Source: Amphiscolops sp. MND2022
Taxonomy: Eukaryota
DNA: 64,000 nt
Direction: 5' to 3'
NCBI GenBank assembly: GCA_964187785.1
Contig: OZ076409.1
Location: 1,240,001 to 1,304,000 of the forward strand
Below the pieces are notes generated by a model. The model was not told the origin of the DNA, ran no database searches, and saw nothing but the letters and a program-made list of their open reading frames with translations. Made by a program: the position numbers and the translations under genes. Below, in pieces: positions 5,641 to 39,749 of this stretch. Every line of letters starts with the position of its first letter. Positions within the stretch are counted from its first letter, which is position 1.

Positions 5641-5869
5641 GAATGCAATATATATTCAAATATATATATACTAAATACTGAGCGCTCTAGTTCCGGTGTC
5701 CGCACAAATGATCTTGCTTATAGCCTTAATGTGCTGTAACTTTTCATATTGGTTTGTCACGACAACGGAGAGAAGTTTTACGGTCAGACTGGACCGAGAG
5801 ATATGAAGGTGATGAACTAAGTTTTTTCTACATGCTCCTCGCCTCAGAGCCATAGTGGTGACAATCCCT

Positions 5870-6510
5870 TCTCTGAAATTCATTGCTAATCCATCAGCGG
5901 ATTGGACAGTGAACCTACGAATTGATTATGGTATTTTACTTGAATCCATCAGCGGGTTCACTGATACTATTTAACTATAATTCATCGCAATTTCATCCCC
6001 AAAATTGCGAGTGAATTTGAATTGGGACTTCAGACTATTTTCATCACTAATCCATCAGCGGATTTTATGGGACTTGATTTTAGTAAATTCATTTTAAATT
6101 CATCGCCGTCTTACATTTAGTAACTCCAAATGTGCTTCTCAGTTTTTAAAGACGGTAACTCATCTCTATTTCATCGCATGGACAGTAGACAGAAAGAAAT
6201 GAGAAAACCATCTCTAATTCATCTTAAAAAGAGTGAATGTGCTGGATTATCTGTTTTGTTGAGTAAATTCATCCCTGACCCATCCTGATTTTGAATCGTA
6301 CTAAAATTGTCTGATTTATCGAGCAGATGCATCCCTATTTCATCGTTGAACTAATTTGTGTTAGAATTAGCTGTTTATTGAGTGAATTCATTCTAAACTC
6401 GTCGCCAATCTAATTTGTGCTGGAAATTAGCTAATAATGAAGGAAGTTCATCTCTTCATCATCGTAATTTTAGACCTTGTTGATTTTCATCGCATTTTCA
6501 TCCTGAACTA
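5870..6510 (+). repeat. Degenerate tandem repeat of roughly 55-60 bp built around an (aa)ttcatc core
   Basis: Recurrent attcatc/ttcatcg/ccatc motifs at near-regular spacing. Similar motifs in both orientations occur near 44440-44630. Confidence 0.5.
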
Positions 6511-6780
6511 AACTGGGCTTGAAAAATCAGCAAATATTCTCATGTTCTCATCACATATCCATCCTCAATTGCAAAATATCGATTTTTAGTGCTACAATCA
6601 GCTGGAAAACATCGTTTTCCCATCGCGCAATGTACCTTATCCTGATTTGGCTTGAAATTAGTGCGGTATCGAATACTTTCAGCTTATTTTCATCTCTATT
6701 GGTAACCACTGTCATATGTGCAGGCAATTGCGACATTGTAAATTGATGATTCACTGCCATTTACATAATATGTAGATTCA

Positions 6781-7600
6781 TCATGATGCGTGGCCACCCT
6801 GCGGCAGTTCACAACACCGGTCACGTGACTTACCAATTAACACCAACTGGCAGTAACCAATGAGAGAAGGCTGGTAAGAGATTTAGCGTCTTACCAGCCT
6901 GAAAAGACACGTGAACTGCTGTAGTTTAAGCTGCCATTAGAGATTACTCAGACCGAAATTGCGACTAGCTACCGCCCAGTTGGATAATTCACGTCAAACT
7001 TCACCAGAAAATACATCTACAATTCACCTCCAATAACGATAACTTGACTTTCTGAATAATCTTCCGATGAATCTACCTTGCGATGAAACTTGGATGAATT
7101 TTCTCAATTTGACTTTCTGATTCACGCTTATTATTAGATACTCAATTTCCTTTGTATACTTCATCTCCTAATAATCTCAGTTCAAAATTAGTGAATTCGA
7201 GATATTACGTTCAGCAATAAAGTAACAAAACACATCCGTAAAACATCTAACAAATCCAGTCCTTACTCACAAACTTTTTCACTTGTTTATATGAGTCAGA
7301 ATCAATGGACAGTGCTCAGAAACGGTAAAATCATTGATTCCTCGTTAGAAACAGCTCCTCCTGAAGACTTGAACATAGCACAGACGAACTCTCATGTTTC
7401 TGACACCAATGACAGTTCTGATATCTCTTCTCAGCTTTCTGAAATAAAAGAGAGTTACGAACGAAAGATTAGCGAGTTACATCAGGAATTTAGTCAACTG
7501 AAGGACTTAATGATGGCAATTGTGAATAAGAACAGTAGTGAAACTCAGCCATCTAGTTCAAAAGGTCCTTCAAAGCCGCCCCAACAGCAGGGGTTCGACA
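6781..7600 (+). mobile_element. Solo or orphan Gypsy LTR carrying the 5' part of gag (MSQNQWTVLRNGK...QQQGFD)
   Basis: ORF 7291-7710 looks like a coiled-coil gag N-terminus up to gggttcGACA (7600), the same GACA LTR terminus as the large element, then runs into unrelated sequence. Left boundary approximate; no TSD found. Confidence 0.55.
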
Positions 7601-16255: not shown

Positions 16256-16852
16256 TCAAAAACAGACATTGAGATAAAAGTGAATGTCATGAACATTACG
16301 TTGTGTTTTATCACCATGTTCATTATTGAGAGTAGTTCTAGTTTTCGCGTTGTGTTGAACTTCGGAATAACTTTCCGGTCTCTCGTCAGATCTCTCCCAT
16401 CCCCTTCTAGTCTCCTGTCCTGAACCGGCCATAATAACGTTTTGAATTTGTGGCAAAACTTGGTTATTGATGGCATCACTTATGGCTCTCTGGATTTGAG
16501 AACTAACACTGTTCATCATCTCATCCATCTCTCTAGATATTCTAGAGTTTAGTTCACACGATAACTTATTGATCTCAGCTTGAGAATCTATACTTGCTGT
16601 GATTCGGTCGTAACCGGCACTAGTCCCAGTTTCGGGATTTCTATGATCAGAATGGAGATTCATTTCCTCATTTTCTAAGTTATTGCTTGTAACACTTTCC
16701 TGTCTTCTAATGGAAGTTCCATCGAGACTTTCGTCTCTCCCCATGTCATTGAAGTGATTTTCACCTAACATTATGTCAAGGTTTTCAATGTCAGAGAGAA
16801 TCTCTAATCCTCTAGATTTCCTTGTTTTCTTTTGCTTTCTTGTAGTAGGCAT
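16256..16852 (-). CDS. Truncated duplicate of the gag N-terminus inside the 3' LTR, reading out into flanking DNA
   Basis: First 189 aa identical to gag 29385-31079, then IHFYLNVCF from the flank. Confidence 0.85.
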   Translation of the reverse strand: MPTTRKQKKTRKSRGLEILSDIENLDIMLGENHFNDMGRDESLDGTSIRRQESVTSNNLENEEMNLHSDHRNPETGTSAGYDRITASIDSQAEINKLSCELNSRISREMDEMMNSVSSQIQRAISDAINNQVLPQIQNVIMAGSGQETRRGWERSDERPESYSEVQHNAKTRTTLNNEHGDKTQRNVHDIHFYLNVCF

Positions 16853-18016
16853 TAAGACCGAACCGGATTGAATACTTGAATTATCAATTCCGAAATGTTA
16901 ACAGTGAAACCGTTTGTATTATGAACGTCTTTATCAAATGAAGAGAAATACAAAGTATGAGTCTTCCTGCAGGGGTACGGGTATTTATACCCCTAAAGGG
17001 ATGACACACACATTTTTTACATAGTTTGATCACGACAAATCATAGGATTTTACAATCATCATAAGAAAATCCCCGACAACTACATATTTCCGGGGGACAT
17101 TTAAGGAATGGAATTCAGAGTCATCATCTTAAGTAGCAACTTCAAACAATTTATCGGTTAAGACCGCTTAATGTGTGATGTAAACAAATACCACAATTTG
17201 CATATTTTATAGTAACGTAAAATGAAGGCACGTGCCGGCACAAGTTTACTGCATGTTAAGCTAAAAACGGAATGTATTACTATGTATGGAATCCTAATAT
17301 TGCATTGATATTCACAAAAATACACTCGCATATCAAAGCCAGAATAGGCCCAAATTCATAACATGTATTGCACATATGAAGAACATGGTAAAAGGCCATA
17401 ATCGTCCCTTTATCCAAATCAAAGGTATACAAACATCAAAACGTCACAACCGTATTCATTTAGTCTAAAAACATGATTCTAATAGCTCCGCGTAAGTACT
17501 GATCCAATTATGTAACAAAAGCATCATTAAGCTCGAATTGGCCAGAGCCGTCCATTTGACTGTGGGACTGATTCAAATTAGCGCCGCTTAGTCAATTGGC
17601 CATATCCGGCCACCATAAATAAAGCACTCATAATTAGTAAAAAGGGGAGCTCTGATTGGCTAATAACCGTGCTGAAAGTTACATCGCCGAGAAGGGACGT
17701 TTTCTTACTTGAACACGTTTCCTTCTCGCGATTAACTTGCTTATTGTACGTTACCGCTTTGATTAATTTCAACAACTACCTTTTACAATTTCAATCACAA
17801 CTTGATTTGGATAGCTCCAAATCGTAATTTTAACAGACTAATATCATGAACAATTATGTGAAAATGCACTTGAATAAGTAAAATGAATGTGATCAACTAG
17901 TAAATATAAGTTTCAGTAAGGGAAAGTTTAAAACGTGGGTAGGGTACCTGGGACGATTTCCTGATTTTCCGCTGACGTCGTTATTAATGTACCGTCACAG
18001 GCGGCAGCCTGCGACA
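16285..18016 (-). repeat. 3' LTR (1732 bp)
   Basis: Matches 30512-32243; visible differences only at about 17316, 17568, 17646, 17767 and 17815. Confidence 0.97.
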
Positions 18017-19586: not shown

Positions 19587-22500
19587 ATGTCTTCAAGCAC
19601 AGGTTGGTCTGGTTTTCGTATATTGAACTAGCTTAGCTTGATCAGGGCTAAATTTGTTCACAATAAGCTTCCTGTTTCCACTAATAAGCGCGTGACAGCA
19701 CATTTTGTTCAAATTCTCAAGTACTTCCGGAAGGTTTCTAATGCGGTAGAATGGATTCTTTTCGAGGAAGCATACCGCCAAACTTTATCTCTTTTTATTT
19801 AGAGAATCAAACAACTGAAGTTACCGATGTACCAGTCAGACCTGCTACCACTACTTCAGCGGCTAATCCACCGACCGAAGCTGGACCACAAATCCAAAAT
19901 CCGAGTGTGTCCCAAGAGTTGTCTCGAAGCCGTACTGATGATATCACCTCTACTCACAGTGCTGACAGTGACCCAGATGTAACATCATATGCTGAATCTA
20001 TGCTCCAACGGATGCAACAGACACAACGCATCGTTACACACGAAGAGAAACATCCTGCGGCTGCCCTGCTGCAGAGCCAAGAACAAGCCAATGACCCTCC
20101 TGAATTAGTATTGACGACTGCTGAGAACCGAAGGTCGAGTACGCCCATCCAGTCTGTTGAGGAGGAAGTCCAAGAAGCTGACTTGTCAGCTTTAGAGTCT
20201 GCCTTGAAGGTCATCGAGGCCTCTGAGTCTCAGCTACCTGAATTGAGAAACAAGAACAATTCAGACCAAGTGGATGCAAGTGGTATCCAATCCAGGACTG
20301 ACGAAGATAACGCCTCGTCAATTTGTGATGTACCCGCTCTCCCAGGAGGTGACCCCAAAGTACGATTCGCCGTGGGATTGGGTGATGAAGAAGAGTCTAC
20401 CGGAGAGTCAAGTCGACTGGTCCCGGTAGAGTTGTATGGACGTCCTCCTTTCGGTCCTGAGTCTGGAACTGAATGTGAAGGGGATACCGGTTCCGAAGGG
20501 CAGCTTTTGGAATCAGGCAAAACATGGACTGCTGGCGGGAGTTCACATCCAGACAAACTCCCAGATCTCTCGGGTCGTAGTAGAGCCATTCTAAAGGAGT
20601 ACTTCGAGGAGGCTTCTCCTATTAGACTTCCCGTTGGGCATACTACCGTAGCCTTCACAGAGCCTCAGGTTTATCACCTCCTGCGTACCCTCACGGATGA
20701 GACTCTTCGCAAGTCCTTCAGTACTATGGAAAGAATGGTACTCGATGCTGTCCGAGGTTCCCCGACCGCTCTCCCGTCACGTACTTCTCACTTTCAACTA
20801 AAGAGGAGAGCACAAACCCCTGGACCTGGGACCCAGAGTGACTCTGAGACGGAGAGTGACCCACAAGGAACAGTTTCAGATCAGCTTGGGTCGAGTAGCG
20901 ACGACACTGGCAATGCTTCCCTCTATGAGGAAACCGATAGCGCCACAGAGATGGACCTGATAACGAAGTCCTTTAAGCAGACTCCAGCGCAACCTCTAGA
21001 CAGGGAGATTCAAACGGGCGCGCCAGATAATCAGCAGCAAACAGGACTAGAGATGGAAGGGCCCAGTAGTCAAGATACCACCTTACACGAGATGCGTGAG
21101 CAGGCTCAGAAGGACCTAGGAGAGGGACATTCTAAATTGAAGAAGAAAAAGGGCAACAAGAAACTTTCCAGGAGAGGGGTGCCAATGAGGGAAGAGTTCT
21201 TCTGTAAAATAGGGTGGACGAGATCGTTCATTTCCGGGCCGGCTGATCCTTTGCATAATCCACATATGGTCTGGTGCCATATTTGCAAAAAGAACTTCTC
21301 TATCAAATCAAAGGGGCCCTATGAGATCTTGAGGCATCATCGGACAGATCGCCACTTAAGACGTGACCAAAGGTGGCGTTACGAACACTTGCGTAGTGTC
21401 GACCCCGTTAGTGGCAAAGTGCAACATCGAGTCAGAGGTGCTAACGGCAAAATCTTGACGAAAATTGAACTGGCCAATCAACTACCCAAGTTCATCAATG
21501 CTGAATTAGTGGACATCGGGGAGAGGTTCCCCTTTTACGAGGATTTCATACGAGGGACTACCACAGCCTTGGTCACACAGGAAGCAAGGGTCAAGACCCA
21601 ACTTTGCCTGGTTGGGGATTTCATGAAGACTCTGGGTGACTTGTCTGTCTTGAGGAACCTGTGGGCCAGAATGGGGGCCTTCACCAACCATCAAGCTACT
21701 GTGTGTGATTTTGACTGGGGCGAAGAACGTATAAGTGTAAGTATATTTTCGGTGACCTGTCCACTAGGCCGTGTATTTCCTTTCTAGAATTTCTGTTTTT
21801 CTTACAGGCAATCTTCCAGCATTTCTTCATGAGTGCCCTGAGCAACCTCGCTGAGCACGTCGCCGCCGAACAATGCTTCGCCATTGAATTCGAGGCTGCT
21901 GGAGTTTACCGCTATATGACAGTCAGGTTCTGGAAGGGTCACGAGCTCTGCCGGGTCTTCATTTGCAGAAGTTCTCTTCCCGCAACTGACATAACAGGCG
22001 AACTAGGCTCCCTGGCTCGATTCTTGTCTGCGGTTTCAACCCAACCAGATGTAGTGGCATGTTCCGGATGTCACGTTGACTTTGCCAAGACGATTGATCA
22101 ATCAGATTACTTCCCACAAGGGGTCCAGAGTTGTTTCCGTTTTGAGCAGTTGTCCTTACCCACCTTAATGCACAAATCCAAATATTCCGTCTTTGGTCAA
22201 ATAGACTTCTTCTCCGTGCTCCAGGCCCTGATGGTGTCCTTAGGCGGCTCTCTTACTGAAGAATGGGCAATGCGGAGTCCAGAGCTCACAAAAGTAAGTA
22301 CTTCACTTCATCTTTCATTTGATGGTCGGGGGTCGTTTAACTTAGGTATGGTAAGGAACAATTCCCAACAGCAAGATTGGTTTTAACAGGCGGTGACTAA
22401 TTGCAAACTTGACATCCTGACGCTCCCAGTCCTCTGTACAGAACTGGCCAAGGAGTGGAAACTCATACTCCGCTATTTGACTGAACATGCACCTATACAA

Positions 22501-23957
22501 GGAGGTCAAGGAGTCCGCAGCAGGGTTAGGTTTGATTTCATTCCTTTACTTGTATAATCAAATAGTACCACAGGGAGGTTCTTGGGCTCCCCCCCTTTCA
22601 TTTACCGGGCGTTTGGCGAAAACTAACGTATGCATCTTGTTTAAGGTACAGAGCTTCGAGTGGTCCCTGATCTGTGATGAGTTTTTCGTGGTCAAGTTGG
22701 AGTTCTTCAACAGGCTCGTGAGCGATTGTAAGTTGTTTACTTTTAGGGTAGTTGTTCAGGGATCTACCCTACTTTAGGCTTTGATTTGTGTTTCCAGACG
22801 TAGCTAGTTTTCCGGTGAACCTCCAACACAGGCGTGATTCCTCTTTCTATTTATGCGGGGAAGTCTGCCAGTTCTTAAGCCTACTTTGTTCTCGTGCCTA
22901 TACACCTGACACTGTCCCCCTTGCGAATGCCTGGTTCCTGTTGTTACGATTCCAGACCAGTGAGGCTACCTTCCTGGATGGGGAAGAGTATCTGGTTCGT
23001 CTGAGGCTCTCTCACAAGGTATCAGCGGCCAGCAAAGCCAAAGCGGAAGGGATGCATTTCGGCAAAAAATCAGAGCGCCCAGCAATCCTAGCAACCACAG
23101 AGACTGTAAAATCCGATTTCGTTAAAGACAGCCAGCAATACATCCAGTATCTGGTCAATGAGGTTCTTCGACAAACTGGGCTGACTACCAACATCGTGAA
23201 GGGAATGGCCGCCTTTGACCCTTTTATTTTGTTCAAGCGGCCTATGGATGTAGCTCTGCGGCACTTCGACATCCTGTACAGTACTTTCTCCCTTCACTCT
23301 TGGGTGTCTAATGCCAACGAGTCCTTGTGTCGGGATCAGTATATGCAATTACTTGACCACCTGCGTACAGCCTATGACCCTAATTTCGACATATCTAGCG
23401 TCTCTGCTGACCTAATTGAGTTCCTGTCCGAGCTGGAATTCCTCCGTAATTGTAGCTGCTTATTCTATTTGTTCAAGTTGTGTTGCTTGTGTGCTACGTC
23501 TGTTAGCCCCACGTATCCTGATGTCATTTTCGGGACAGTTTCCACTTCTGGACGTCATAGATTGACAGACGTCATTCTTCCCAGTCAAAGTTACGTAGCT
23601 AACGTGCGTGACGCAGTTGCTTTCTGTAGTGATGATGGGAATCTGGCCAAGTTCATTGACTTCTCTTCTTCTTTCGGGCGTTCTGCATTTGCTCCCGATT
23701 ATGATCCTTGGACGTACGCGGACAATTTCGGGCGTTCGAAGATTTATAAGTCATTGTTGGCTTCCTACCGGGCAGCTCTTTCCACCCCTCAAAAATCTCT
23801 GGTCCGTGGTGCGCCAGAAGATCAATGTTCCGTAGCTGATATGTCTGCTGTGAAAGCCCCTACTAGCACTAAGCGAAGGAAAATGGAACGTCGCGCTTCT
23901 CGCGCCTCTTCGTCATCCACTGCTGGAGTCAGTGAGCCTGGTTCATCTAAAGACTAA
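19587..23957 (+). CDS. Antisense six-exon accessory gene, 1270 aa: disordered N-terminus, basic NLS-like patch, BED/C2H2-like zinc finger, degenerate hAT-transposase-like C-terminal half
   Basis: Exons 19587-19602, 19803-21736, 21808-22293, 22390-22524, 22646-22727, 22798-23957 (3813 nt = 1271 codons). Introns 19603-19802, 21737-21807, 22294-22389, 22525-22645 and 22728-22797 are all GT..AG with matching phases (1,0,0,0,1). Zn finger WCHICKKNF..RHHRTDRH; KLKKKKGNKK. Confidence 0.85.
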
Positions 23958-24192: not shown

Positions 24193-25590
24193 CTAGTATC
24201 TGAAGTCTTCTGAGTAGTTTGGGTTAGGGTTAGGTCTGAGGTTATATTTCCCTCCTCTAGGGCTCAGACTCTCATTTCTAGCATCGTTTTCGGATATTTC
24301 GGGCACGATAATGTCATCCCCCCTGTTTGGAGATTTTTGTGTATCGTTTTCATTCGTCAAGTTTCTTTCTGTAAAATTTCCATCGTTTTCCGGTCTATCT
24401 GCCGTATTCGGCAATGATTTTTCTTGGTTTTTTGGGGAAACGGCCGGATTCGTCCAATCAGATTTGTCATTGGTAGCCGCTTCACTAGTTTCATTCCTTT
24501 TTGTGACGTCATGATTTAATCTTTCATTCCGGTTCCGCGCCGCGTGGTCAGCGTAACTTGTTTCGTCACTCGTGATTATGTAATCCGGTTCATTCTCGGC
24601 TACGTCATTTGTATTCGCTTCTGGCACGTTCGGCCGTTCGCCATTCGGCATGCTGGTCGGAATAGTCTCGTTGCCTCGTGTAACTAGTTGCTCGCCAAAG
24701 TCGGTTTCCCACGTTATGACGTATAAATCATCTTGCGGAATGACAATTTCTTCATCTGTCTGCAACTGTTGTTCTCGGGAATTGTCCTCAAGCGGTTGAT
24801 TGGGGACAAACCTTCTAAGACGAATGCGATGCAAAATTTGAGTTTTGTTCGTATTGATTCGTCGTACTATATAGTTTTCATTTGGCGAAACCTTTTGGAC
24901 TACAAATGGTCCAACCCAACGATAATCGCGGAATGGAATTTTCGATCCTTGATTGTCCGCTTTCGGCTGTAAGACAAAACAGTATTTGTTCTCCTTTAGT
25001 GGAGCGGCTTTTGCTTTGCGGTCGTAATATTCTTTGTACTTGATATACGATTGCATAATGTTCTGCTTCGTTTTGTCAATCAGGATTCTTGTCCGGTTTT
25101 GGATTTCTTCAGCAAATTCGGTTGTGGGGTTAATTTGCTCGTTTGGATTATTTCCAAGCTTGTGATTTAAAATATTAAATGGAATTCTTCCATGAAATAC
25201 CCTCGTTGGCTCGCAACCGATGCTGGCGTGGTAGGTAGTATTATGATTTAGTACTGCTAATGGCAAGTATTTGTGCCATTGTCGGCGATATTCTCCACAT
25301 GCCAATTTGAGATTTGTTTTCAATGAGGCATGAGTTCGCTCCAATTTCCCAATTGTCTGCGGGTGTTTTGTTGTTGCACTTTTGAGTGTGATGCCCAAAA
25401 TCTGCGTAACCTCCGCAATAATTGTAGAAGTAAATGCAGTACCTTTATCAGTGATAAGAGTCGTTGGTAGATATGAGTGTTTAGTCATGATGTCAATGAT
25501 CGCTTCTGCTACATTGATCGCTGATGCGTCCGTAAGGGGATAGGCGAACAAATATCTGGAGAATACATCAATTGCTGTTAAGACGTTTTC
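24193..25590 (-). CDS. pol: Pol integrase catalytic core and C-terminal domain (separated from RT by a frameshift lesion)
   Basis: ITDKGTAF, HPQTIGKLERTH and WVGPF (GPY/F) motifs; acidic tail ending GGKYNLRPNPNPNYS. Confidence 0.92.
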   Translation of the reverse strand, partial: ENVLTAIDVFSRYLFAYPLTDASAINVAEAIIDIMTKHSYLPTTLITDKGTAFTSTIIAEVTQILGITLKSATTKHPQTIGKLERTHASLKTNLKLACGEYRRQWHKYLPLAVLNHNTTYHASIGCEPTRVFHGRIPFNILNHKLGNNPNEQINPTTEFAEEIQNRTRILIDKTKQNIMQSYIKYKEYYDRKAKAAPLKENKYCFVLQPKADNQGSKIPFRDYRWVGPFVVQKVSPNENYIVRRINTNKTQILHRIRLRRFVPNQPLEDNSREQQLQTDEEIVIPQDDLYVITWETDFGEQLVTRGNETIPTSMPNGERPNVPEANTNDVAENEPDYIITSDETSYADHAARNRNERLNHDVTKRNETSEAATNDKSDWTNPAVSPKNQEKSLPNTADRPENDGNFTERNLTNENDTQKSPNRGDDIIVPEISENDARNESLSPRGGKYNLRPNPNPNYSEDFRY

Positions 25591-27949
25591 ATACCCAACA
25601 CAATAGGTCTATTTGCATGGCGTCTTCAGGTCCGAGGTCCCATTCGGGCAAGTTAAGCAGCTCAGGTGTGATCGTTGCGTTAGGGACTCTTTTGTCTCTG
25701 GCACATTGTTCGCACCCTTCTACCCACTTTTTGACGTGTTTAGCCATGCTAGGGTAGTAATACCTCTGTCGAATTTCCTGCAGCATTTTTGAAATCCCAG
25801 GATGTTTATGCGCTGTCCCGTGAAGAGATTGGAGCAATTCCTGGAGTAAATGTTGCGGGAGTAAAATTTGATGGTATTTAACATTCCCTGTTTCATCGAA
25901 ATATTGCCTTGTCAGGATTTCGTCCTTTAGTACAATTCGTTCCAGATTGTTTGCGTAATGTCTATATCGGGCATCCTGGTGCAGTAGATTTTCTGAATAC
26001 TCTTCATGAAGCAGTTTTGCTTTCAATTGTTGTAGTACCGCATCTTTGGATTGCTCGATAATGATCTGGTTCGTTTTCCTCAATAGGACTTGTATATCGG
26101 GGTGTTGCTTGACTAGATTTGTTGACAGAGTTTGTATAGTAACAGTGGGTTCATCAGTTGCTGGATTTTTCTTGATTGCTTCTTTTCTTGCCCACAACTG
26201 TTCTTCTGTCTCATCGTCGTCATTGGTGTAGAAGATTTGTTCTTCTTGCGATACCCCTGCGGATTGGACATTGATTTCGATGGGTAGTGTTTGTACATCT
26301 TCACGAATTTTCATCACCAATTTGTCCTTTGGATCTGCTTCCAATCGGGACAAATAGTCGGCAGCTGTATTTTGTGCTCCTGGGATGTGTGCTATGACAA
26401 AGTTGAACTGAATGACATAATCACACGCGTTCCACAGGGCTGGGGGTATTATTTTTGTTTGGAAAAATCTCGTGACAGCTTTATTGTCTGTAAGGATGAT
26501 GCCCGGTTTCGGCGCACCCCAAAATATATGTCCGAATTCTTTGAATGCAAAATAAATTGCAAGGAATTCTTTGGCATAAATTGACATCTTTATCTGCGCT
26601 GGGGTGAAAGTTTTTGATCCATATGCGACTGGTGCATACGATTTTCTGTGTGACGTAAATTTCTGGCTTGGGTCGTCTTCGATTAGGACCGCGTATCCGG
26701 CTGCACCAAAACTTGCATCAGTCATTAGTGCTATTTGTTTGTTCGGAATGGGTTGTTGTAGGGCCAAGTCGCAACATTTGTCTAGCGCCCTATTGATTTC
26801 TTCAAATTGCTGGACTAATTCCTTCGATACTAGGACCTTTTCGTCACTCTTCAGCATCTTGTAGAATGGAGCAAGGCGTTCTGAAAGTCTTGGGACATAA
26901 TTCCTGTAGTAGTTTAGGAATCCCAAATAGCGCTGTAAAGCCTTTTTCGACTTCGGGAATTTGGTCTTTTCCAGAAAGTTTTGCACATTCTGTTTCTGGG
27001 GTTTGACGCCTTGTGGGGTAATAGTCCGTCCGAGAAAATCGATTTCTTTTGCACCGAAATGACATTTGTGCATTGTTAACTTAAGGCCTGCTTCCTGAAT
27101 GCATTTGAATGTAGCTCTCAGGTTCGTCATGAGGTGGTCAACATCATTGGCTGCGATGCCGGTATCGTCCACATACTGGGCACACTGATCCGCTTTGATG
27201 ACTTTGTCGAGGTATTCCCTCATGAAACTCGAGAATGCGGATAGTGACCGACTAAGGCCTTGTGCCAAACGTCTGTAGGCGAATGTGCGACTGGCAAAAT
27301 TGAAAGCCAACATTTCGATTGAACGTTGGTCAGCCATTGGTAGGCAGTGGTATGCCTGCGAACAGTCTAATTTACAGAACAGTTTTTTGCCTGCCAAGTG
27401 TTGGGCGGCATCAACTAGCGTACTGACGGGATGATTGTTGTTGATATAATCATCCGAGATGAGGTTGTTGATTTTTCTCAAGTCAACCACGAGTCGGAGT
27501 TTTCCGTTCGGTTTCTTTTGTGCGAATATTGGGCTCGCATATTTCGAGAACGGTAGGGTGGTGATGATGCCATATTTGTGTAACATGGCTAATTCGACTA
27601 GGATGTCCTCCTTCAGATTGATAGGAGCTGGAAGGCTTTGGCTATAGGCTGGGGAATCGTCTTTAGGCGTCAGTTTCACCTTGAAGTCCTCGTTCATGCC
27701 TATATCAAATCGGTGTCGTGCAAAGATGTCATGGAATTCCACTAACAATTCCTCTATTTTCTCCTTCTCTTCAGGAGTAAGGGTGGAATCTTTCCAATCG
27801 AAGTTTTCTAAGAATTTTGCACGTGAGTCTTCATCTTTGGTGGGGTCAAGTGTCTCTAGGTCTTGTAAGGCCTGTAATTCTCGAAGGATTCGTTTTTGTA
27901 TAGGTGTGTGTTCCTCCGGATTTCCAGGATTTTCTGGAGTTGAGAACCA
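25589..27949 (-). CDS. pol: Pol reverse transcriptase, RNase H and integrase Zn finger
   Basis: LRLVVDLRKIN, KLDCSQAYH, YVDD, TDAS, TDNK, ADYLSR, and HHCC (HGTAHKH...CEQC). Confidence 0.95.
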   Translation of the reverse strand, partial: WFSTPENPGNPEEHTPIQKRILRELQALQDLETLDPTKDEDSRAKFLENFDWKDSTLTPEEKEKIEELLVEFHDIFARHRFDIGMNEDFKVKLTPKDDSPAYSQSLPAPINLKEDILVELAMLHKYGIITTLPFSKYASPIFAQKKPNGKLRLVVDLRKINNLISDDYINNNHPVSTLVDAAQHLAGKKLFCKLDCSQAYHCLPMADQRSIEMLAFNFASRTFAYRRLAQGLSRSLSAFSSFMREYLDKVIKADQCAQYVDDTGIAANDVDHLMTNLRATFKCIQEAGLKLTMHKCHFGAKEIDFLGRTITPQGVKPQKQNVQNFLEKTKFPKSKKALQRYLGFLNYYRNYVPRLSERLAPFYKMLKSDEKVLVSKELVQQFEEINRALDKCCDLALQQPIPNKQIALMTDASFGAAGYAVLIEDDPSQKFTSHRKSYAPVAYGSKTFTPAQIKMSIYAKEFLAIYFAFKEFGHIFWGAPKPGIILTDNKAVTRFFQTKIIPPALWNACDYVIQFNFVIAHIPGAQNTAADYLSRLEADPKDKLVMKIREDVQTLPIEINVQSAGVSQEEQIFYTNDDDETEEQLWARKEAIKKNPATDEPTVTIQTLSTNLVKQHPDIQVLLRKTNQIIIEQSKDAVLQQLKAKLLHEEYSENLLHQDARYRHYANNLERIVLKDEILTRQYFDETGNVKYHQILLPQHLLQELLQSLHGTAHKHPGISKMLQEIRQRYYYPSMAKHVKKWVEGCEQCARDKRVPNATITPELLNLPEWDLGPEDAMQIDLLCWV

Positions 27950-29388
27950 ATAATATAAGTTTCAGAGTTTTGCGGATTTCTATTGGTCTTGATGAGACTG
28001 CTGACATAGTGGGCTGCCTGCTCCTGGTCATTCTGTAGAAGGTGCCAGGTTGATGCCGGATCTATCGGTTTGACGTACTTCATCTGTTCTGGCGTCATGA
28101 CAGAGAAATTGGCAATATGAAGTCCCTTTTTGAGTTTATAAGGGTGGTCTGTGAAGTTGTTCACTGGTATCAGTATATTGCCGTCATTCAGAGTGACCAA
28201 AGCTGGGCAAAATGTGATGTCGCCTTCTTCATGTAAAAGGTCGCTCGGTTGCAAAATTCCAGTGACAGCATTCTCAGGGTAGAGTAGGGAATTGGTCCTA
28301 ATTAGGACTTTATCATTTGGTGGAATGGTTATCTCAATAGGGTTGAGAATTGGCTCTAATACATTTGAATACTTGTGATCAGCTGTTTTGAGCTGCATGG
28401 AAAAGAACGGGAAATTCAGTATCCCTTGTCTCATGTCCAGCACTGTATGGTTTCTTTGAAGGAACGTTAGTCCAATGATCGGACCTGTCAGATGTTCCAT
28501 CACTATGAAGATTTCATGGAACTCAATGTCACCAACTTCGAATTTGAGCTCTATTGTACTCTTAGGAGTTTCCAATTGCCCATTAGCGACCATTATTTGG
28601 AACTTCGGAGGCGGACCTTCCCGGATAACAGATTGTGGAGATAAAAGTCGAATTTTCCGGAGGTCCATTCCGGGAATTGCACTGGACAGCGCTCCAGTGT
28701 CAATAAGTCCATCTATGGTCAATTCCCCAAAGTCCATTGGGAAGTACAACATGCGTTTCTTGCATTTGAGATTGATGTTAGTCGACAGGGGTATACAGTC
28801 TGGTTCACCGTCTCTAGTGATTAAGACATTCTGGAACTGTTTCTCGTCTAGCAATGATTGTGGTATGGGTTCAACATTGCTGTCATGGGTCTCGGTCCCC
28901 AATGGGTTTGGGAACACTGGATGGTTTGTGCCATCATTCATTTACCAGTTTTCAATTAGCGCTCTTGTTTTCTTGTTATGGGTAATTGGAGGGTTCTCGT
29001 GGGCTGTTCTATTATAATGTTCAATATCGTCTAGGACATATTGGAATTGCAGTAAATCTTGGTTGTAAAGCTCGGTGTCCCAGTAGGGATCTCTGCCATA
29101 GTCTGGGTCGATGTATGTCGGGTTGTAATCATCGATTAGTGGAATGGGCCTGAATCGGGTAGTGAAGGTGGTGGTGTGATCAGGGTCCCAAACAGGAATT
29201 GGTTTCTGGAACAAATGGGTGTTATTGTAGGTGATGATGGTGGCTTTTTCCATCTGCTGCTGCCAGACAACAGAGGGATAGCCCATCAATTGTTGATTGT
29301 ATTGGTGGAAAGTTTGTGTTGGAGGGTCCGATCTGATGTATTGTCGGACAGATATTAATTCGTTATATTGGAGTCGTGGCGAAGTTAG
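27950..29388 (-). CDS. pol: Pol N-terminus: aspartic protease and dUTPase-like insert; in-frame TAA at 28942-28944
   Basis: LIDTGA protease motif and IIGLTFL. The -1 frame from the gag slippery site is open to 28945, and the same frame resumes at 28941. Confidence 0.88.
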
Positions 29389-31079
29389 TTTTTTGACTCG
29401 TCATTAGAATATGAGGATTGGGAGCCCGATGATGTCGGTTTGGTCTGAGGTTTCTGAGCCTTGGGATTGGGCTTGTTGTCAGTTGAGTCCTCAGGTCTAG
29501 TGCGTTTGGGTTTAAGATGTGCACCAGCGCCTTGCCAACATCTCTCCTCCGGGTGGTTCTTTTTCCCACAAGTGCCACACTCCGGATATGTTTTCTTCTG
29601 CGTCGACTTGCCTTGTTGGGCATCCTTTTCTTTTTTCTTTTTCAGTTTTTCGCAGTCCTTGACCATGTGGCCCTTTTCCTTGCAATAATTGCAAGTGATA
29701 TGGGACAGTTGCCCTGTGGACAGAGGGGTTTTAGGTTTCGTAGTCGAGGAGGTCATTGTGGCCATCGGTAGGTCATCTGACTCCTCGAGGGCGTTAAGCT
29801 CTAATTTTCTCTCCAAATGAGCAACTATCTCATCGTATGAGCCATTTTCTAATCTGGCCATGTTGACGGACCGCTTCAGTTTTGGTGGCAGTTTTGCGTA
29901 AAGCAAGCTGTCAATCAATTTCTGCGCAAGATCACCAAACGCCTTCTCGGCTCCTTGGTTTAATTCTTCGAGAAAGTCAGGCAGTTTCATCGTGTTGGGA
30001 TCGAAGACCAGACGGTGCCATTTATGTTTGGCAGTCGCCTGTGACTCGGGCTTGACGTATTTCCGTCTAAAGATGACTAACACGTCCTCTAGAGTTTGTC
30101 GGTTGCTTGAGCTGATATTTCTGAACGTTTGAAGAGCATTCTTCCTCAATAAAGAGTGGAAGTGATTGATCTTCATTGGCTCAGTCATTTCTGGCTGCAT
30201 CTTGATCATAGTGTGAAATAGGTCTTCGAACAGTTCGAAATTCTCACTTTTGCCATCGAATGTCATGGTATTTGAGTTGACTGGGCGTATGGTAAGTTGT
30301 TGGGCTGTCGGTCTATTCTGCATTGTAGTCAAGACGTCTGCCAGTCGAGTGATAGGCTCGGAGTCAATAGCCGTAGCGATTCTCTGTTGTGCTGGGATCG
30401 TCGTGTCGAGGTTGACGTCCTCGAAGGACCTGTCGAGATAATTTCGGGATGAGATGCGTCCTGTGAGAAACTCAGGAACTGGATTTGGAGATTCGTTGTC
30501 TCCTGTCACCATGTCATGAACATTACGTTGTGTTTTATCACCATGTTCATTATTGAGAGTAGTTCTAGTTTTCGCGTTGTGTTGAACTTCGGAATAACTT
30601 TCCGGTCTCTCGTCAGATCTCTCCCATCCCCTTCTAGTCTCCTGTCCTGAACCGGCCATAATAACGTTTTGAATTTGTGGCAAAACTTGGTTATTGATGG
30701 CATCACTTATGGCTCTCTGGATTTGAGAACTAACACTGTTCATCATCTCATCCATCTCTCTAGATATTCTAGAGTTTAGTTCACACGATAACTTATTGAT
30801 CTCAGCTTGAGAATCTATACTTGCTGTGATTCGGTCGTAACCGGCACTAGTCCCAGTTTCGGGATTTCTATGATCAGAATGGAGATTCATTTCCTCATTT
30901 TCTAAGTTATTGCTTGTAACACTTTCCTGTCTTCTAATGGAAGTTCCATCGAGACTTTCGTCTCTCCCCATGTCATTGAAGTGATTTTCACCTAACATTA
31001 TGTCAAGGTTTTCAATGTCAGAGAGAATCTCTAATCCTCTAGATTTCCTTGTTTTCTTTTGCTTTCTTGTAGTAGGCAT
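29385..31079 (-). CDS. gag: Gag (564 aa) with two CCHC zinc knuckles; starts inside the 5' LTR
   Basis: CNYCKEKGHMVKDC and CGTCGKKNHPEERC; capsid-like FDGKSENFELFEDLF region; intact ORF. Confidence 0.93.
   Translation of the reverse strand: MPTTRKQKKTRKSRGLEILSDIENLDIMLGENHFNDMGRDESLDGTSIRRQESVTSNNLENEEMNLHSDHRNPETGTSAGYDRITASIDSQAEINKLSCELNSRISREMDEMMNSVSSQIQRAISDAINNQVLPQIQNVIMAGSGQETRRGWERSDERPESYSEVQHNAKTRTTLNNEHGDKTQRNVHDMVTGDNESPNPVPEFLTGRISSRNYLDRSFEDVNLDTTIPAQQRIATAIDSEPITRLADVLTTMQNRPTAQQLTIRPVNSNTMTFDGKSENFELFEDLFHTMIKMQPEMTEPMKINHFHSLLRKNALQTFRNISSSNRQTLEDVLVIFRRKYVKPESQATAKHKWHRLVFDPNTMKLPDFLEELNQGAEKAFGDLAQKLIDSLLYAKLPPKLKRSVNMARLENGSYDEIVAHLERKLELNALEESDDLPMATMTSSTTKPKTPLSTGQLSHITCNYCKEKGHMVKDCEKLKKKKEKDAQQGKSTQKKTYPECGTCGKKNHPEERCWQGAGAHLKPKRTRPEDSTDNKPNPKAQKPQTKPTSSGSQSSYSNDESKN
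29388..29394 (-). other. -1 ribosomal frameshift slippery heptamer A_AAA_AAC
   Basis: TCA AAA AAC TAA at the gag end; the -1 frame (LTSPRLQYNELISVRQY...LMGYP) is open and joins ORF 28942-29289. Confidence 0.8.
30494..30511 (-). other. Primer-binding site (TGGTGACAGGAG...), lying inside the gag coding sequence
   Basis: TGG starts immediately after the LTR terminal CA. Cognate tRNA not identified with certainty (possibly Leu). Confidence 0.8.
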
Positions 31080-32243
31080 TAAGACCGAACCGGATTGAAT
31101 ACTTGAATTATCAATTCCGAAATGTTAACAGTGAAACCGTTTGTATTATGAACGTCTTTATCAAATGAAGAGAAATACAAAGTATGAGTCTTCCTGCAGG
31201 GGTACGGGTATTTATACCCCTAAAGGGATGACACACACATTTTTTACATAGTTTGATCACGACAAATCATAGGATTTTACAATCATCATAAGAAAATCCC
31301 CGACAACTACATATTTCCGGGGGACATTTAAGGAATGGAATTCAGAGTCATCATCTTAAGTAGCAACTTCAAACAATTTATCGGTTAAGACCGCTTAATG
31401 TGTGATGTAAACAAATACCACAATTTGCATATTTTATAGTAACGTAAAATGAAGGCACGTGCCGGCACAAGTTTACTGCATGTTAAGCTAAAAACGGAAT
31501 GTATTACTATGTATGGAATCCTAATATTGCATTGATATTCACGAAAATACACTCGCATATCAAAGCCAGAATAGGCCCAAATTCATAACATGTATTGCAC
31601 ATATGAAGAACATGGTAAAAGGCCATAATCGTCCCTTTATCCAAATCAAAGGTATACAAACATCAAAACGTCACAACCGTATTCATTTAGTCTAAAAACA
31701 TGATTCTAATAGCTCCGCGTAAGTACTGATCCAATTATGTAACAAAAGCATCATTAAGCTCGAATTGGCCAGAGCCGTCCATTTGACTGTGGGAGTGATT
31801 CAAATTAGCGCCGCTTAGTCAATTGGCCATATCCGGCCACCATAAATAAAGCACTCATAATTAGTAAAAAGGAGAGCTCTGATTGGCTAATAACCGTGCT
31901 GAAAGTTACATCGCCGAGAAGGGACGTTTTCTTACTTGAACACGTTTCCTTCTCGCGATTAACTTGCTTATTGTACGTTACCGCTTTGATTAACTTCAAC
32001 AACTACCTTTTACAATTTCAATCACAACTTGATTTGGATAGGTCCAAATCGTAATTTTAACAGACTAATATCATGAACAATTATGTGAAAATGCACTTGA
32101 ATAAGTAAAATGAATGTGATCAACTAGTAAATATAAGTTTCAGTAAGGGAAAGTTTAAAACGTGGGTAGGGTACCTGGGACGATTTCCTGATTTTCCGCT
32201 GACGTCGTTATTAATGTACCGTCACAGGCGGCAGCCTGCGACA
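30512..32243 (-). repeat. 5' LTR (1732 bp)
   Basis: TGTCGCAGG...TTCATGACA on the minus strand; followed by the PBS. Confidence 0.97.
31209..31216 (-). promoter_or_regulatory. Candidate LTR TATA box
   Basis: TATAAATA about 130 bp upstream of the gag ATG (copy at 16982-16989). Confidence 0.45.
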
Positions 32244-32254
32244 GTGAAGAAACA

Positions 32255-32772
32255 ACAAGCCGGGAACGACCCAAGTTGGCGTCATATCTAAAACTCAAAA
32301 AAAGCAAAAGTACTTCAAAGTGTCAAGTATTCTTTTCTGTGGTACCTGAAAATTCGAAAAGTGCAACCGAATTGGCGCACCCTTCCCGGTTTTTTAACAT
32401 TCATTCAGTTGCAAAATATCAAAATTTTGAAACAGGACTCTTTGAAGATATAAAAAACATTTTGAAAAAGTCTCACAATGCCGAAAAATACGAAAAGGGA
32501 ACCCTTCTTAATTTTTTTTAACATTCGAACTTTGAAACCGTTACATCCGAACTTTGAAAACGTTACATTCGAACTTTGAAACGTTATATCCGAACTTTGA
32601 AAACGTTACATCTGAACTTTGAAACGTTATACTCGAACTAACATCCACGTTAACCTCGGCAAAGATGTTGCACAAATGAACAAAAAAGTGGACCGATCGC
32701 GTTGAACTGACGAAAAAAACTAGCCACTGTAAGTAAGAGTCGTGCTTTTTCTTCGAAGGCGCCGACTGAAAA
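32255..32772 (-). mobile_element. Non-autonomous Helentron/HINE (DINE-1-like) element, family A, with an internal ~21-bp tandem repeat
   Basis: Subterminal inverted repeats agt(c/t)ggcg / gcgccgact, degenerate terminal GC hairpin; repeats of acattcgaactttgaaacgtt at 32521-32640. Confidence 0.7.
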
Positions 32773-33661: not shown

Positions 33662-36059
33662 ATGTCAACGGTAATTCTATCGCGAAAAACAAAAAAGAAA
33701 ACTTTTGACGTTAAATAGCATAAATATTTTTGCCGCTTCAAGTTTCATCGAACAATGGATGAAAAGACACGTTTGAGAATTTTTTGTTCAGGAGCATAAA
33801 AATTGGATTCGACATCACAAGTTTCCGTAATAGTGATCAAGAAATGCAAAAAATTCCAGAACAAACCATCACAGATATAACTTTTGTCGCTGTTTTCCCG
33901 TGTGATTTTTTTCGTTTTGCCTCCAATTTCAGACAGTTTCCGTTCAAAATTTCCGACTCATTTAAACTACTATTCCTAATTTTTCCTTTTTTTTTCAAAT
34001 TGTCAGTATTTTGGTTGGTTCCTCAGCGTCGCATTGTATTTCTCTTCTACTATCTCCACATTTTGGAGTGCTCATTTTTTCCCAAACTTTTGCCGTTTTG
34101 TCTGTTCAGTTTTTTCGAGGGTTCTAAAAGAGATTCTTCTGAGAGCTGTTTTTGCCGCTAAGTTTTTTTGTTGAATTTGATTGGTTAAAGACAAAACTAG
34201 TAAGTAAGATAAAGCTAAATATTTAGTTTCAGAATGATTTGAACTGAAAACCAGTTGTATCGAAGGTTAGTTATTTTCTTTTTGTAAAACCGGTGAATCT
34301 GTTTTTTTTTTAATTATTGTTATTAATTTTAAATTATCTAGAGCAAATAAAATGAAGGTTTCAAATTAAAAGCATAGAAGTTTTGCAACTATCATTTGCC
34401 AACTATCATTTTCAAAACTGATATTTCAGAAGTACTTGAATAGATTGGACTTTTCTTTTCAAAAAATTCGAATCTTCTTCAAAAAAAATTCAAAAAAATG
34501 AATTTTTAAAGAGATGAGAAATATTCTGAGAAGGAACGTTTAATGTAAAACTGATAGTTGTAAAATATCAAACGTTTTCGAAAGTACTTTTTTGAAACAA
34601 AAATTGCAGCTCCTTTGATTCTTATCACACCTCTTCTATCGAAATTATAAGTTTAATATCAGCAGTAAACTATTTGCAAAGAAGCAGAAATTTCTTTTGC
34701 ACCAAATTTATCTCATTGATGCTTCAAAAAAAACATTTTTAACCTAACATATGGAGGGTAGTTCTTGTTTCTGAAAAACTTTTTCTTGAGGTAATGAAAA
34801 AGTTGATCCAGAGAAAAAAAAGCACCTGAAATTTTTGAGATGATCAAAAACTGATTTTCACAAGTTTAAGGCTAAAAACCTTTGCTAAACGTTGAGTCAT
34901 TTTGAGCTGGGTCGGCAACTTTTGAAAAACTGACGCTCCTCTCGAGGCTGAAAAGTGCATGTCCACCAAACATGCTAGAGTTCAGTTTTAGCAATCACGT
35001 TAGGGCTTTTATAAGGCTCTTAAAAGTATTTTTCTAACTGGAAACATTACAAAGACCAAAGGGACCCTCTGTGGGGAATAAACTTTGCAGAAAATATCGT
35101 GCAGTGCTCAAAACCCCTCAAAAAAGCTAATTACAATCAATTCAAAAACATTCGAAACAATTGACGAAGTCGATATTCAGTGACAGTGTGTCTAATCCTC
35201 AAGGGGATATCTTGCATCGATCTGTCACATACCAATTTGTATCTTGTAAAATGTTCCAAATTGCAGACGAATTGTAAATTTCATATAGCGCAAGAAATTG
35301 AGCAAAAAGCAGTACACGTAATGACAAGAAACATCCACAACATACTAATTCTGGATCGGATGTAAAAACAACTTCTCAAAAACCACTTCGGACAAAAAAT
35401 ACTTTGAATTTTTTACATGAGACAAAGTTAACTCCAGTTAACCATTCGATGCTTTAAATCACCTTTCTTCTCTAAACATCAAAGTCATTTTTCCAGTAAC
35501 ACATACTCTCTAGCAATTTATAGTTCACCTTCTGTTGATGCGGTGCTTCGTTTGAACAGCACAAGAAATGAAAAAGCATATTTCTCGACAATTTTTTCGA
35601 AACTTTTTGGTGCTTAGAAAGCAGCAAAAATCTATACTCTCACACAACAAGCGCCTGTAGCAAGAACCTCAGCGCCTACAAACGATTGAATGGAAAAGTC
35701 ACATATTTTTGAATAACGTCAAAATGGGACTATTTGATGCCGCCTATGTTTGCGAAAGTTGCAAAAGGGAAACACAAAAGTTAAACGCAAAACAGGCATG
35801 CCAACCATTAGACCAATTGGTAAAACGATGACTTGACGCGAAAGTCTTTTAAACTGGAAAAGTCAGTTTGAGGTCTATAATTTGACAAAAAACGTTCTTT
35901 GACAAGAATCGTGCACCTCTTGTTCGAAAAGCGCCATTTAACATTCGGAAAAGGCAGCAAAAATGATCGTCTCAATAGACAAAGCAATGAAACAGTATCA
36001 AATTGACTTTGAATTTTAGGCCAATTTGTCAATACTGCTAAACAACGACTTAAAAAAAT

Positions 36060-39000
36060 ATTGCCAATTTAGTTGAATATTTCGAAAGTCATAGACGAAA
36101 TTTCAATGAAGATAAAACCGAATTCATTGTCTTCTGCAAAAATTCCCAGAACAAATAAACAAAAAATCTCAAATTACAAGTGAAAAATCATTCCACAAGT
36201 CTAAGTTCTTTTTGTTAAGTATCTTGAAGTTTACTTAGACCAAAGTATAACTTACGAAAAATAAGTAAAACATGTCTCAAAGAAAATGGCCTGTGGTAAT
36301 AAAAAACAATCTATGCATAGCAACGATTCTTGCCGGGAAAAAATTACTTCGGAATGCTCTAGTTCTTAGTCATCTTCATTATCCAGCAGTATTGCTTCAC
36401 GCATTTCACAAAAACTCTTAACAACACTCAAAAAACTATTGAGTTGCAGTGTAAAAGCCTGTTTTAATTGTCAGAAACAGGAATCAGCTAGTGATTTGAA
36501 AATTAAACAAATTATAATTCCAATAGGAATTTTTCTTGACTATAAATCATGTTTTTACTTCTTGAAATATCAAAATATCCTACTACCAGCCTTCAGTGGT
36601 ACTAATACAAAACCAACAGCTAGATGGAAGTATCACAGTCGAACTAAGAAACTTGTATGCAATACAAAAATTTCCAAAGAATTCATGAGAAAAAGTTTCT
36701 CATAAGCATTCTACCCCCGTCGAATAGCCTACCTTCTTGTCTTGTCAAAAAGAAATTTTCCTCTGGAACAACTAAAAGCAAATATAAAGTTCTTTTCTCA
36801 AATAAAATAGTGAAACAAATGGAACAACCGGAAGATAGAAAAAATGCTGAAGAGATTACCGCATTAGTTTTGTTTTTCAATAATAATCACACTGCCTTTT
36901 TTAAGGAAACAAAATGATGTCTCTTTTAATAAAGGAATTCAGTGTTTTTTCCATTGCAGGAAAGAATAAACAACCATCCAATAGAAGCCACTGAGTTATG
37001 AAAATCATTTATTACGCCAAATTAGTTGAATACTTCGAAAGTCATAGACATAATCTCAATGGAGATAAATCCGAATTCAATGTCTTCTGAAAAAATTCCC
37101 AGAACAAATTAACAAAAAATCTCAAATTACAAGTGAAAAATCATTCCACAAGTCTTAGTTCTTTTTGTTAAGTATCTTGGAGTTTACTTAGACCAAAATC
37201 TAACTTACGAATAGGAAGTAAAATATGTCTTAAAGAAAATGGCCTGTGGTATTAAAAAACAATCTATGCATTGAAACGATTCTTGCCGGGAAAAATTTGC
37301 CGGGAAAAATTACTTCGGAATGCTCTAGTTCTTAGTCATCTTCTTTATCCCGCAATATTGATTCAAGCATTTCACAAAAACTCCTAACAACACTCAAAAA
37401 ACTATTGAGTTGCAGTGTAAAAGCCTGTTTTAATTGTCAGAAACAGGACTCAGGTAGTGATTTGAAAATTAGACAAATTATAATTCCAATAAGAGTGTTT
37501 CTTGACTATAAATCATGTTTTTATTTCTTGAAATATCAAAATATCTTACTACCAGCCTTCAGTGGTACTAATACAATACCAACAGCTAGAATGAAGTATC
37601 ACAGTCGAACTAAGAAACTTGTATGCAATACAAAATTTTCCAAAGAATTCATGAGAAAAAGTTTCTTCATAAGCATTCTACCCCCGTCGAACAGCCTACC
37701 TTCTTGTCTTGTCAAAAAGAAATTTTCCTCTGTAACAACTAAAAGCAAATATGAAGTTCTTTTCTCAAATAAAATAGTGAAACAAATGGAACAACCGGAA
37801 CATAGAAAAATTGCTGGAGAGATTATCGCATTAGTTTTGTTTTTCAATAATATTCACACTGCCTTTTTAAGGAAACAAAATGATGTCTCTTTTAATAAAA
37901 GAATTCAGTGTTTTTTCCCTTGCAGGAAAGAATAGACAACCATCCAATAGAAGCCACTGAGTTAAGAAAATCATTTATTACGCCAAATTAGTTGAAGACT
38001 TCGAAAGTCATAGACATAATCTCAATGGAGATAAAACCGAACTCATTGTCTTTTGCAAAAATTCCCAGAACAAACTAACAAAAAATCTCAAATTACAAGT
38101 GAACAATCATTTCACAAGTCTTAGTTCTGTTTGTTAAGTATCTTGGAGTTTACTTAGACCAAAATCTAACTTACGAAAAGGAAGTAAAACATGTCTTAAA
38201 GAAAATGGCCTGTGGTATTAAAAAACAATCTATGCATTGAAACGATTCTTGCCAGGAAAACTTTGTCTGTTACTTCTGAATGCTCTAGTTCTTAGTCATC
38301 TTCATTATCTAGCAATATTGCTTCAAGGCATTTCACAAAAACTCTTAACAACACTCAAAAAACTATTGAGTTGCAGTGTAAAAGCCTGTTTTAATCGTCA
38401 GAAACAGGACTCAGCTAGTGATTTGAAAATTAAACTAATTATAATTCCAATAGGAAATTTTTTTTGACTATTAATCATGTTTTTATTTCTTGAAATATCA
38501 AAATATCCTACTACCAGCCTTCAGTGGCACTAATACAATACCAACACCTAGAATGAAGTATCACAGTCGAACTAAGAAACTTGTATGCAATACAAAAATT
38601 TCCAAAGAATTCATGAGAAAAAGTTTCTTCATAAGCATTCTACCGCCGTCGAATGGCCTACCTTCTTGTCTTGTCAAAAAGAAATTTTCATTTGGAACAA
38701 CTAAAAGCAATTATAAAGTTCTTTTCTCAAATAAAATAGCGAAACAAATGGAACAACCGGAACATAGAAAAAAATGCTGGAGAGATTACTGCATTAGTTT
38801 TGTTTTTCATTAATAATCACACTGCCTTTTTTAAGGAAACAAAATGATGTCTCTTTTAATAAAGGAATTCAGTGTTTTTTTCCATTGCAGGAAAGAATAG
38901 ACAACCATCCAATAGAAGCCACTGAGTTATGAAAATCATATATTACGCCAAGTTAGTTGAATAATTCGAAAGTCATAGACTTAATCACAATGAAGACAAA

Positions 39001-39700: not shown

Positions 39701-39749
39701 AGTTTTATGTTTTGTTCGGGATATTGCTATTTATGAAAGTTTATCATAC

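Follow-up and report, generated by a model that had tools for sequence, protein, structure and literature searches.

A Ty3/gypsy element from Amphiscolops sp. MND2022 with a gag frame that begins far inside its long terminal repeat

The long terminal repeat (LTR) of a retrotransposon from Amphiscolops sp. MND2022 carries the first 189 codons of its gag gene. The element, a young Ty3/gypsy-type copy of 15,959 bp, lies on the minus strand of the 64,000-nt stretch of DNA analyzed here (the window, whose numbering is used throughout), and its gag open reading frame (ORF) opens with an ATG at 31079, 568 nt before the point where the 5′ LTR ends. A sequence-only reading had proposed this arrangement, and LTR trimming and the ORF coordinates confirmed it; the anatomy of frame and LTR is near certain. 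The same reading had claimed that the LTR end and the adjoining primer-binding site (PBS) are translated through an in-frame junction ATG. This was borne out in the sequence: codon 190 consists of the terminal A of the LTR and the TG of the PBS, giving HD-MVTG in the gag frame (hyphen at the LTR end), and the frame is kept across copies and families. These features fit a Ty3/gypsy lineage in which U5 would have become the 5′ third of gag, an explanation that, taken as a whole, we consider likely.

Element anatomy and classification

Comparison of the window with itself returned one direct repeat at 99.7% identity, the LTR pair of the element (Table 1). The two LTRs differ at 5 of 1732 sites, all upstream of the gag ATG; five non-coding differences against no coding ones are too few, and postdate insertion, and were not used as evidence of constraint. 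The LTR pair, its TG...CA ends, the target-site duplication and the order of pol place the element in Ty3/gypsy (Metaviridae). Pfam domains in pol follow the order gag-asp_proteas, RVT_1, RT_RNaseH and Integrase_H2C2, and Ty3 is among the closest solved enzymes; we take the best solved relatives to be foamy virus, caulimovirus-type and Ty3 enzymes. In gag, two Pfam models matched without reaching the cut-off, zf-CCHC (E = 0.003) and DUF1759 (at E = 2.5e-5), and there were also retroviral NC matches (E = 0.002). Assignment to BEL/Pao (Belpaoviridae) was considered and rejected: Peptidase_A17 was not found, DUF1759 appeared only below threshold, the RNase H fits RT_RNaseH and gag is terminated by a stop.

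Table 1. Coordinates of features in the window (strand relative to the window).
Feature	Position	Strand	Remarks
5′ LTR	30512..32243	−	1732 bp, TGT...ACA; runs 32243 to 30512
3′ LTR	16285..18016	−	1732 bp; runs 18016 to 16285
Target-site duplication TTCAC, upstream copy	32244..32248	−	
Target-site duplication TTCAC, downstream copy	16280..16284	−	
TATA box candidate TATAAATA	31209..31216	−	only such 8-mer in the LTR; function inferred
Initiator-like TCATA	31183..31187	−	~30 nt below the TATA candidate; putative transcription start site (TSS) near 31186
Candidate variant poly(A) signal AATACA	31142..31147	−	68 nt above the gag ATG
gag ORF, 564 aa	29385..31079	−	basic N-terminus, helix 83–142, capsid-like region, two CCHC-type knuckles
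LTR-encoded part of gag	30512..31079	−	189 codons plus the first base of codon 190
Conserved amphipathic helix, codons 83–142	30654..30833	−	modeled as homotrimer
PBS position	30494..30511	−	starts TGG, adjoins the 5′ LTR end; read as MVTGDN
pol region	24193..29400	−	order protease, RT, RNase H, integrase
Antisense ORFs in the element (678, 185 and 301 aa)	19751..23957	+	
Extra sense ORF, 261 aa	17928..18713	−	overlaps the 3′ LTR by 89 nt
3′ LTR copy of the gag frame	16256..16852	−	198 aa: 189 LTR codons and 9 flank-derived residues, then stop
Family-2 candidate LTR	5755..7600	+	ORF begins at 7291; 103 of its codons lie within the LTR; phase as in the element

Several features depart from an intact element. 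The pol region is broken by a stop near 28943 and by frame changes near 27900 and 25600; despite only five LTR differences, these may mark either a non-autonomous copy or sequencing errors. No polypurine tract adjoins the 3′ LTR, the nearest purine runs of at least 9 being 51, 120 and 277 nt upstream of it. Such an end is unusual for the superfamily, but pol keeps the placement standing. The PBS candidate begins with TGG directly after the LTR and is kept as MVTG across families, and a tRNA gene search within the window found none, hence no host tRNA to pair with it.

Beyond gag and pol, the element carries an extra acidic sense ORF with a Cys-rich C-terminal part and its own ATG behind an AT-rich spacer. 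Its overlap with the 3′ LTR means that both LTR ends are coding. The three antisense ORFs are probably exons of one accessory gene, which splicing would join. None matched Pfam; residues 470–678 of the 678-aa ORF gave zf-BED/ZBED1-type Atlas matches (best 0.82–0.84), a lead only. The antisense ORFs and the extra sense ORF diverge across an AT-rich spacer of ~1 kb, which may be a two-way promoter.

Other repeats share the window. A tandem array at ~35900–39800 consists of about four ~965-bp units, 91–93% alike, with a short ORF presumably resembling the tail of a LINE-type RT. Decayed ORFs at ~57300–63900, with copies of a 169-nt repeat on either side (57364 and 63697), resemble what we take to be a BEL/Pao element. 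A dispersed ~90-nt repeat occurs in both orientations (32256–32346, 43143–43236, 47372–47458 and 51345–51395), and the LTR element is inserted directly beside one of its copies.

The gag frame inside the LTR

At the base composition here, 189 stop-free codons would arise by chance with a probability of ~1e-6, and the longest open runs in the other five LTR frames measure 33–81 codons. Base bias by codon position is present in the LTR-coded part of gag and absent upstream in the same frame. Past the junction, the capsid-like region spans about residues 261–435. At the end of gag (about 29394–29385, minus strand), an A-rich heptamer of the usual −1 frameshift form stands just before the stop; 108 of the best 120 listed homologues end in KN, and no strong RNA structure was found downstream of the heptamer (−7.0 kcal/mol).

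A homologue search scored 8000 candidates, of which 1594 matched, and the best 120 (76–96% identity) were analyzed; the listed homologues share one source type and may derive from a single assembly. Among these best 120 of 1594, 105 start at or before the query Met1, a biased rate, given that the list was picked for likeness to the full-length query. The residue pair at the junction is D-M in 119 of the same 120 and D-I in one. The LTR part measures 189, 195 or 197 aa in the 102 rows with an M1-type start, which indicates that subfamily indels keep the frame.

Constraint is uneven along the protein. Variants were classed as shared (by at least 5 rows) or singleton, and the shared/singleton counts were 56/83 in residues 1–30 and 83–142 against 218/128 in the two linkers (Fisher p = 7e-6). 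The capsid-like region had 6/131, and the LTR part is far less constrained than this (p = 1e-13). As judged from these predicted proteins, the LTR-coded part holds two blocks under protein-level constraint, 1–30 and 83–142, weaker than the capsid. The frame upstream of the junction ATG is thus conserved across copies and families, with protein-level constraint. Helical periodicity within the family was not significant, whether measured on conservation (309 of 5000 shuffles) or hydrophobicity (284 of 5000). Scans for the DNA of other copies returned one short zinc-knuckle match in metagenomes and none in viral sequences.

Sister families

A profile search gave 2351 matches, the best 150 of which were examined, with Gags taken from clusters of <50% identity. 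In these distant families the LTR end is placed by a protein motif and not by DNA. In 35 distant representatives the capsid motif lies at a sufficient distance from the start; an MVTG-type motif is internal in 17 of them, forms the very start of 6 and is missing from 12. The preceding residue in those 17 is always D, H or N, and the first internal MVTG is preceded by D, H, N or Y in 200 of 203 cases (among 465 proteins). Codons for these residues can end in AC, as expected if the LTR ends in ACA.

Ahead of the motif, seven long representatives carry 114–194 residues. Aligned to the query LTR part against 200 shuffles, P0242, P0251 and P0246 reached z = 19, 13 and 7, and P0278 aligned weakly (z = 5.8); no significant alignment to that LTR part was found for P0262, P0294, P0329 or P0456, the last from a second family (z < 2). 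Four to seven basic residues stand within the first 14 in 7 of these 8 N-termini. Core positions in P0242, P0251 and P0246 swap among hydrophobic residues, exchanges that argue for constraint on the protein, since constraint on the DNA would not produce them. One of the two other phases, that with a codon boundary at the LTR end, hits a stop in the PBS. With this alternative closed, the shared junction phase is best read as descent plus limited choice, not as a needed Met. The LTR-encoded gag start is, on the evidence of these predicted Gags, a trait of the lineage.

The second family has a candidate LTR in the window itself, with no target duplication in its flanks. By manual reading, 67 of its 78 longer homologues go on in D-MVT-like fashion to a Gag of ~500 aa, and the other 11 change there to tails of no common origin with it. 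In P0246 and P0345, the junction motif stands in tandem, two or three times, which suggests in-frame duplications of a unit formed by the LTR end and the PBS.

The protein domain encoded by the LTR

Pfam and Atlas searches with the LTR-coded part returned nothing named, and nothing scored above 0.77 in Atlas for residues 1–189. AlphaFold predicted helix 83–142 as the one confident element of full-length Gag (mean pLDDT 39.6), with the capsid-like region at pLDDT <50. The strongest amphipathic window lay above 95% of shuffles in 7 of 10 N-termini tested. Modeled as a trimer, three copies of residues 80–146 scored 0.75, against 0.00 for the best of 3 controls, with contact agreement of at least 83% and pLDDT 84; this job falls outside the two-copy calibration of the score. 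In that calibration 21 of 30 microbial solved homo-pairs passed the oligomer mark, as did 17 of 29 eukaryotic ones, whereas no single chain did (0 of 23 and 0 of 30, respectively). Where a eukaryotic pair had no older solved relative, just 1 of 7 passed. Amphipathic helices may also pass it through likeness to solved coiled coils. The LTR therefore probably encodes a basic tract and an oligomerization helix; the basic N-terminal tract is possibly a nuclear or nucleic-acid signal.

LTR-only reading frames in host DNA

The sequence-only reading had held that every 3′ or solo LTR carries the open gag frame into host DNA. As DNA anatomy this stands, and "every" does not: among 120 listed short homologues, 20 stop short of the junction, whereas 15 read on through it as Gag and 85 acquire an unrelated tail there. 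These came from a search with the 198-aa ORF of the 3′ LTR, which matched 945 of 997 short candidates. In 81 of the 85 tails the first residue is one that an A-initial codon can encode, which indicates an LTR end fixed across many insertions. Tails have a median length of 17 aa (mean 24.5, maximum 81), in a set where clustering at 90% favors long tails; random stop spacing in the host DNA of the window has a median of 13 and a mean of 19.

A domain scan of 59 chosen ORFs, mostly long-tailed, found a host domain in the tail of one and none in the other 58. In that one, P0429 of the second family, the LTR ORF is joined in frame to a Dpy19 domain of the host (E = 5.9e-10), apparently reaching the Dpy19 exon through intron-like sequence. 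A suspected likeness of the P0219 tail to the last helix of a ligand-gated channel found no support. In-frame joins to host domains thus appear to occur at the DNA level, and rarely. The suggestion that LTR copies could give fusion proteins survives to the extent of P0429, with the short tails and the single domain in 59 marking such joins as rare.

A second suggestion, that the copies yield dominant-negative truncated Gag, is plausible only through the predicted oligomerization helix. The LTR-only product ends at residue 189 and the conserved capsid-like region starts near 261, so interference by this capsid-less fragment would have to act through the helix. In the available extracts on Ty1, truncated Gag restricts the element, and the restriction factors use the capsid C-terminal domain (PMC7175516; PMC10951436). 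The factors p22/p18 and DRT2 resemble the LTR-only product as Gag fragments that could disturb particle assembly; they differ in that they comprise the C-terminal part of the capsid and stem from internal transcripts or from a domesticated relic, whereas the putative fragment here is N-terminal, capsid-free and LTR-borne.

Functional LTR-only ORFs are the alternative that fares best, and we regard them as unlikely. Under this proposal a capsid-less protein of ~190–250 aa would co-assemble with Gag and damp the family as copies rise, or lend an oligomerization module to host exons. The LTR contains the helix in full, a homotrimer is predicted for it, most short candidates match, the LTR-plus-tail form predominates among those listed, P0429 shows one in-frame join, and Ty1 offers a precedent for restriction by truncated Gag. 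Against this, tail lengths lie near random stop spacing, nearly all scanned tails are without a host domain, the capsid domain through which the Ty1 factors act is absent, and full-length Gag alone explains selection on the helix. Promoter occlusion, nonsense-mediated decay and silencing would also oppose expression of such ORFs. Any function for LTR-only products is accordingly given a low probability. The most elaborate version is quite doubtful: the LTR as a mobile mini-gene with promoter, start codon, basic tract and trimer-forming helix. Its numerous solo and 3′ copies would yield a Gag fragment devoid of capsid that enters and spoils assembling particles, providing copy-number control in proportion to the LTRs that remain in the genome, and occasionally an oligomerization module on host exons. 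In the explanation that we favor, U5 as part of gag, the 3′ and solo LTR ORFs would mostly be by-products, closed by whichever stop the host DNA happens to supply first.

Start codon and proposed mechanism

The upstream ATG at 31079 is very likely the real start because of the positions of the TATA and initiator candidates, its position as first ATG, the conservation of the frame and the protein-level constraint; gag translation would then in all likelihood start inside the LTR. The TATA candidate begins 137 nt upstream of this ATG, which is the first of 18 (8 in frame) between the putative TSS and the junction ATG; scanning ribosomes would hardly reach Met190 past these. Position −3 is a pyrimidine at Met1 and a purine at Met28. 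By the vertebrate start-context rule, the context of Met1 is weaker than that of Met28, and a shorter isoform from Met28 is therefore possible.

Gag synthesis from the junction Met190, alone or as a second isoform, would make the upstream frame a secondary extension or a by-product of an A-rich LTR. We think this improbable. Met190 is nearly invariant among the best listed homologues (119 of 120), 6 of the 35 distant representatives are called from it, and the capsid and knuckles all lie downstream of it. The Met is, however, forced by the LTR A and the PBS TG, and the phase with a codon boundary at the LTR end runs into the PBS stop, so its invariance carries little weight; the 18 ATGs ahead of it, the improbably long open run of 189 codons (p ~1e-6) and the conserved blocks that the upstream frame keeps across families all weigh against such a start.

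We also give little credence to the idea that the LTR-coded exon is additionally spliced to the extra 3′ ORF (18713–17928), yielding an accessory protein like CERV of Cer1. CERV has N-terminal peptides, a leucine-zipper motif and a nuclear localization signal in common with Gag, according to the available portion of PMC10309623. In the present element, only one weak donor-like site was found in 31240–30301, near 30991 and before the helix, and the extra ORF has an ATG of its own. A duplication that extended past the LTR into gag, as an assembly artefact or local event, is largely refuted and almost certainly wrong: the long repeat (1732 bp), the broken pol at 99.7% LTR identity and the missing polypurine tract would suit it, but the TG...CA ends, the 5-bp target duplication, the TGG that adjoins the 5′ repeat and a break point shared by 85 independent predicted proteins, 81 of them with an A-initial codon next to it, speak for a true LTR.

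We therefore return to initiation at 31079 within a coding U5. RNA would start near 31186, below the TATA candidate, and a ~107-nt leader without ATG would precede the start codon. Ribosomes would translate the 189 codons of the LTR, which specify a basic N-terminal tract, a disordered linker, a self-associating helix of ~60 residues and a second linker. They would then read in frame through the integrase attachment end and the PBS before reaching the capsid and nucleocapsid parts. Strong-stop DNA would comprise ~675 nt of R-U5, the 5′ region of gag included, so every new insertion would carry these codons once more in its 3′ LTR. The poly(A) signal probably lies just above the ATG, which would leave the 3′ LTR copy of gag outside the element's own RNA. 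AATAAA is absent from the element's LTR; the second family has one 75 nt above its ORF ATG. With AATACA similarly placed just above the gag ATG, we infer a short R and a U5 of ~610 nt, nearly all coding. R/U5 borders need RNA data, according to an account of LTR models (PMC3601003).

Comparison with known elements

A gag start inside the LTR is already known. The sequence-only reading had cited Ty1 as starting gag in its LTR with a brief overlap, and this holds: extracts of PMC10512236 have GAG begin 40 bp upstream of where the 5′ LTR ends (~13 residues), and those of PMC4974528 place the PBS within the GAG ORF. Ty1 of Saccharomyces cerevisiae (Ty1/copia, Pseudoviridae) thus resembles the present element in both respects. 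The element differs in the extent of the overlap (568 nt against 40 bp, 14 times more), in the whole conserved helical domain that this covers, in its gypsy order and in a PBS at the LTR end. Cer1 of Caenorhabditis elegans, also Ty3/gypsy, has ~491-bp LTRs and 5′ UTR positions of 957 and 1175 in the available portion of PMC10309623, from which its Gag would start well outside the LTR. The plant gypsy elements Diaspora and Ogre share very long LTRs, and Ogre has an extra ORF ahead of gag; in the extracts of PMC1142308 the LTR and the beginning of gag are separated by hundreds of bases, with gag downstream, which is opposite to the arrangement here. For one fish family, the available text of PMC11117352 describes only an overlap between pol and LTR.

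A phrase search of open-access papers, with Repbase and older subscription papers outside its scope, found no report of a gag–LTR overlap of this length. What appears to be new is the scale (103–197 codons, in LTRs of 1.7–1.8 kb), a conserved domain wholly inside the LTR and the spread of the trait over a lineage of gypsy families. Long LTRs as such are also found in insects, in Ulysses, Woot and Osvaldo.

Implications

A whole protein domain under selection can reside in an LTR, and families <50% identical can keep translating the integrase attachment site and the PBS in one phase. The arrangement predicts that strong-stop DNA is long (~675 nt) and that translation competes with primer binding for one RNA. 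Such Gags would come out truncated wherever LTRs are annotated as non-coding, and solo LTRs would be mis-called as hundreds of orphan genes. If LTR-only products are made, this family could be used to test directly if solo LTRs are able to restrict the element that they stem from or to give rise to fusion genes.
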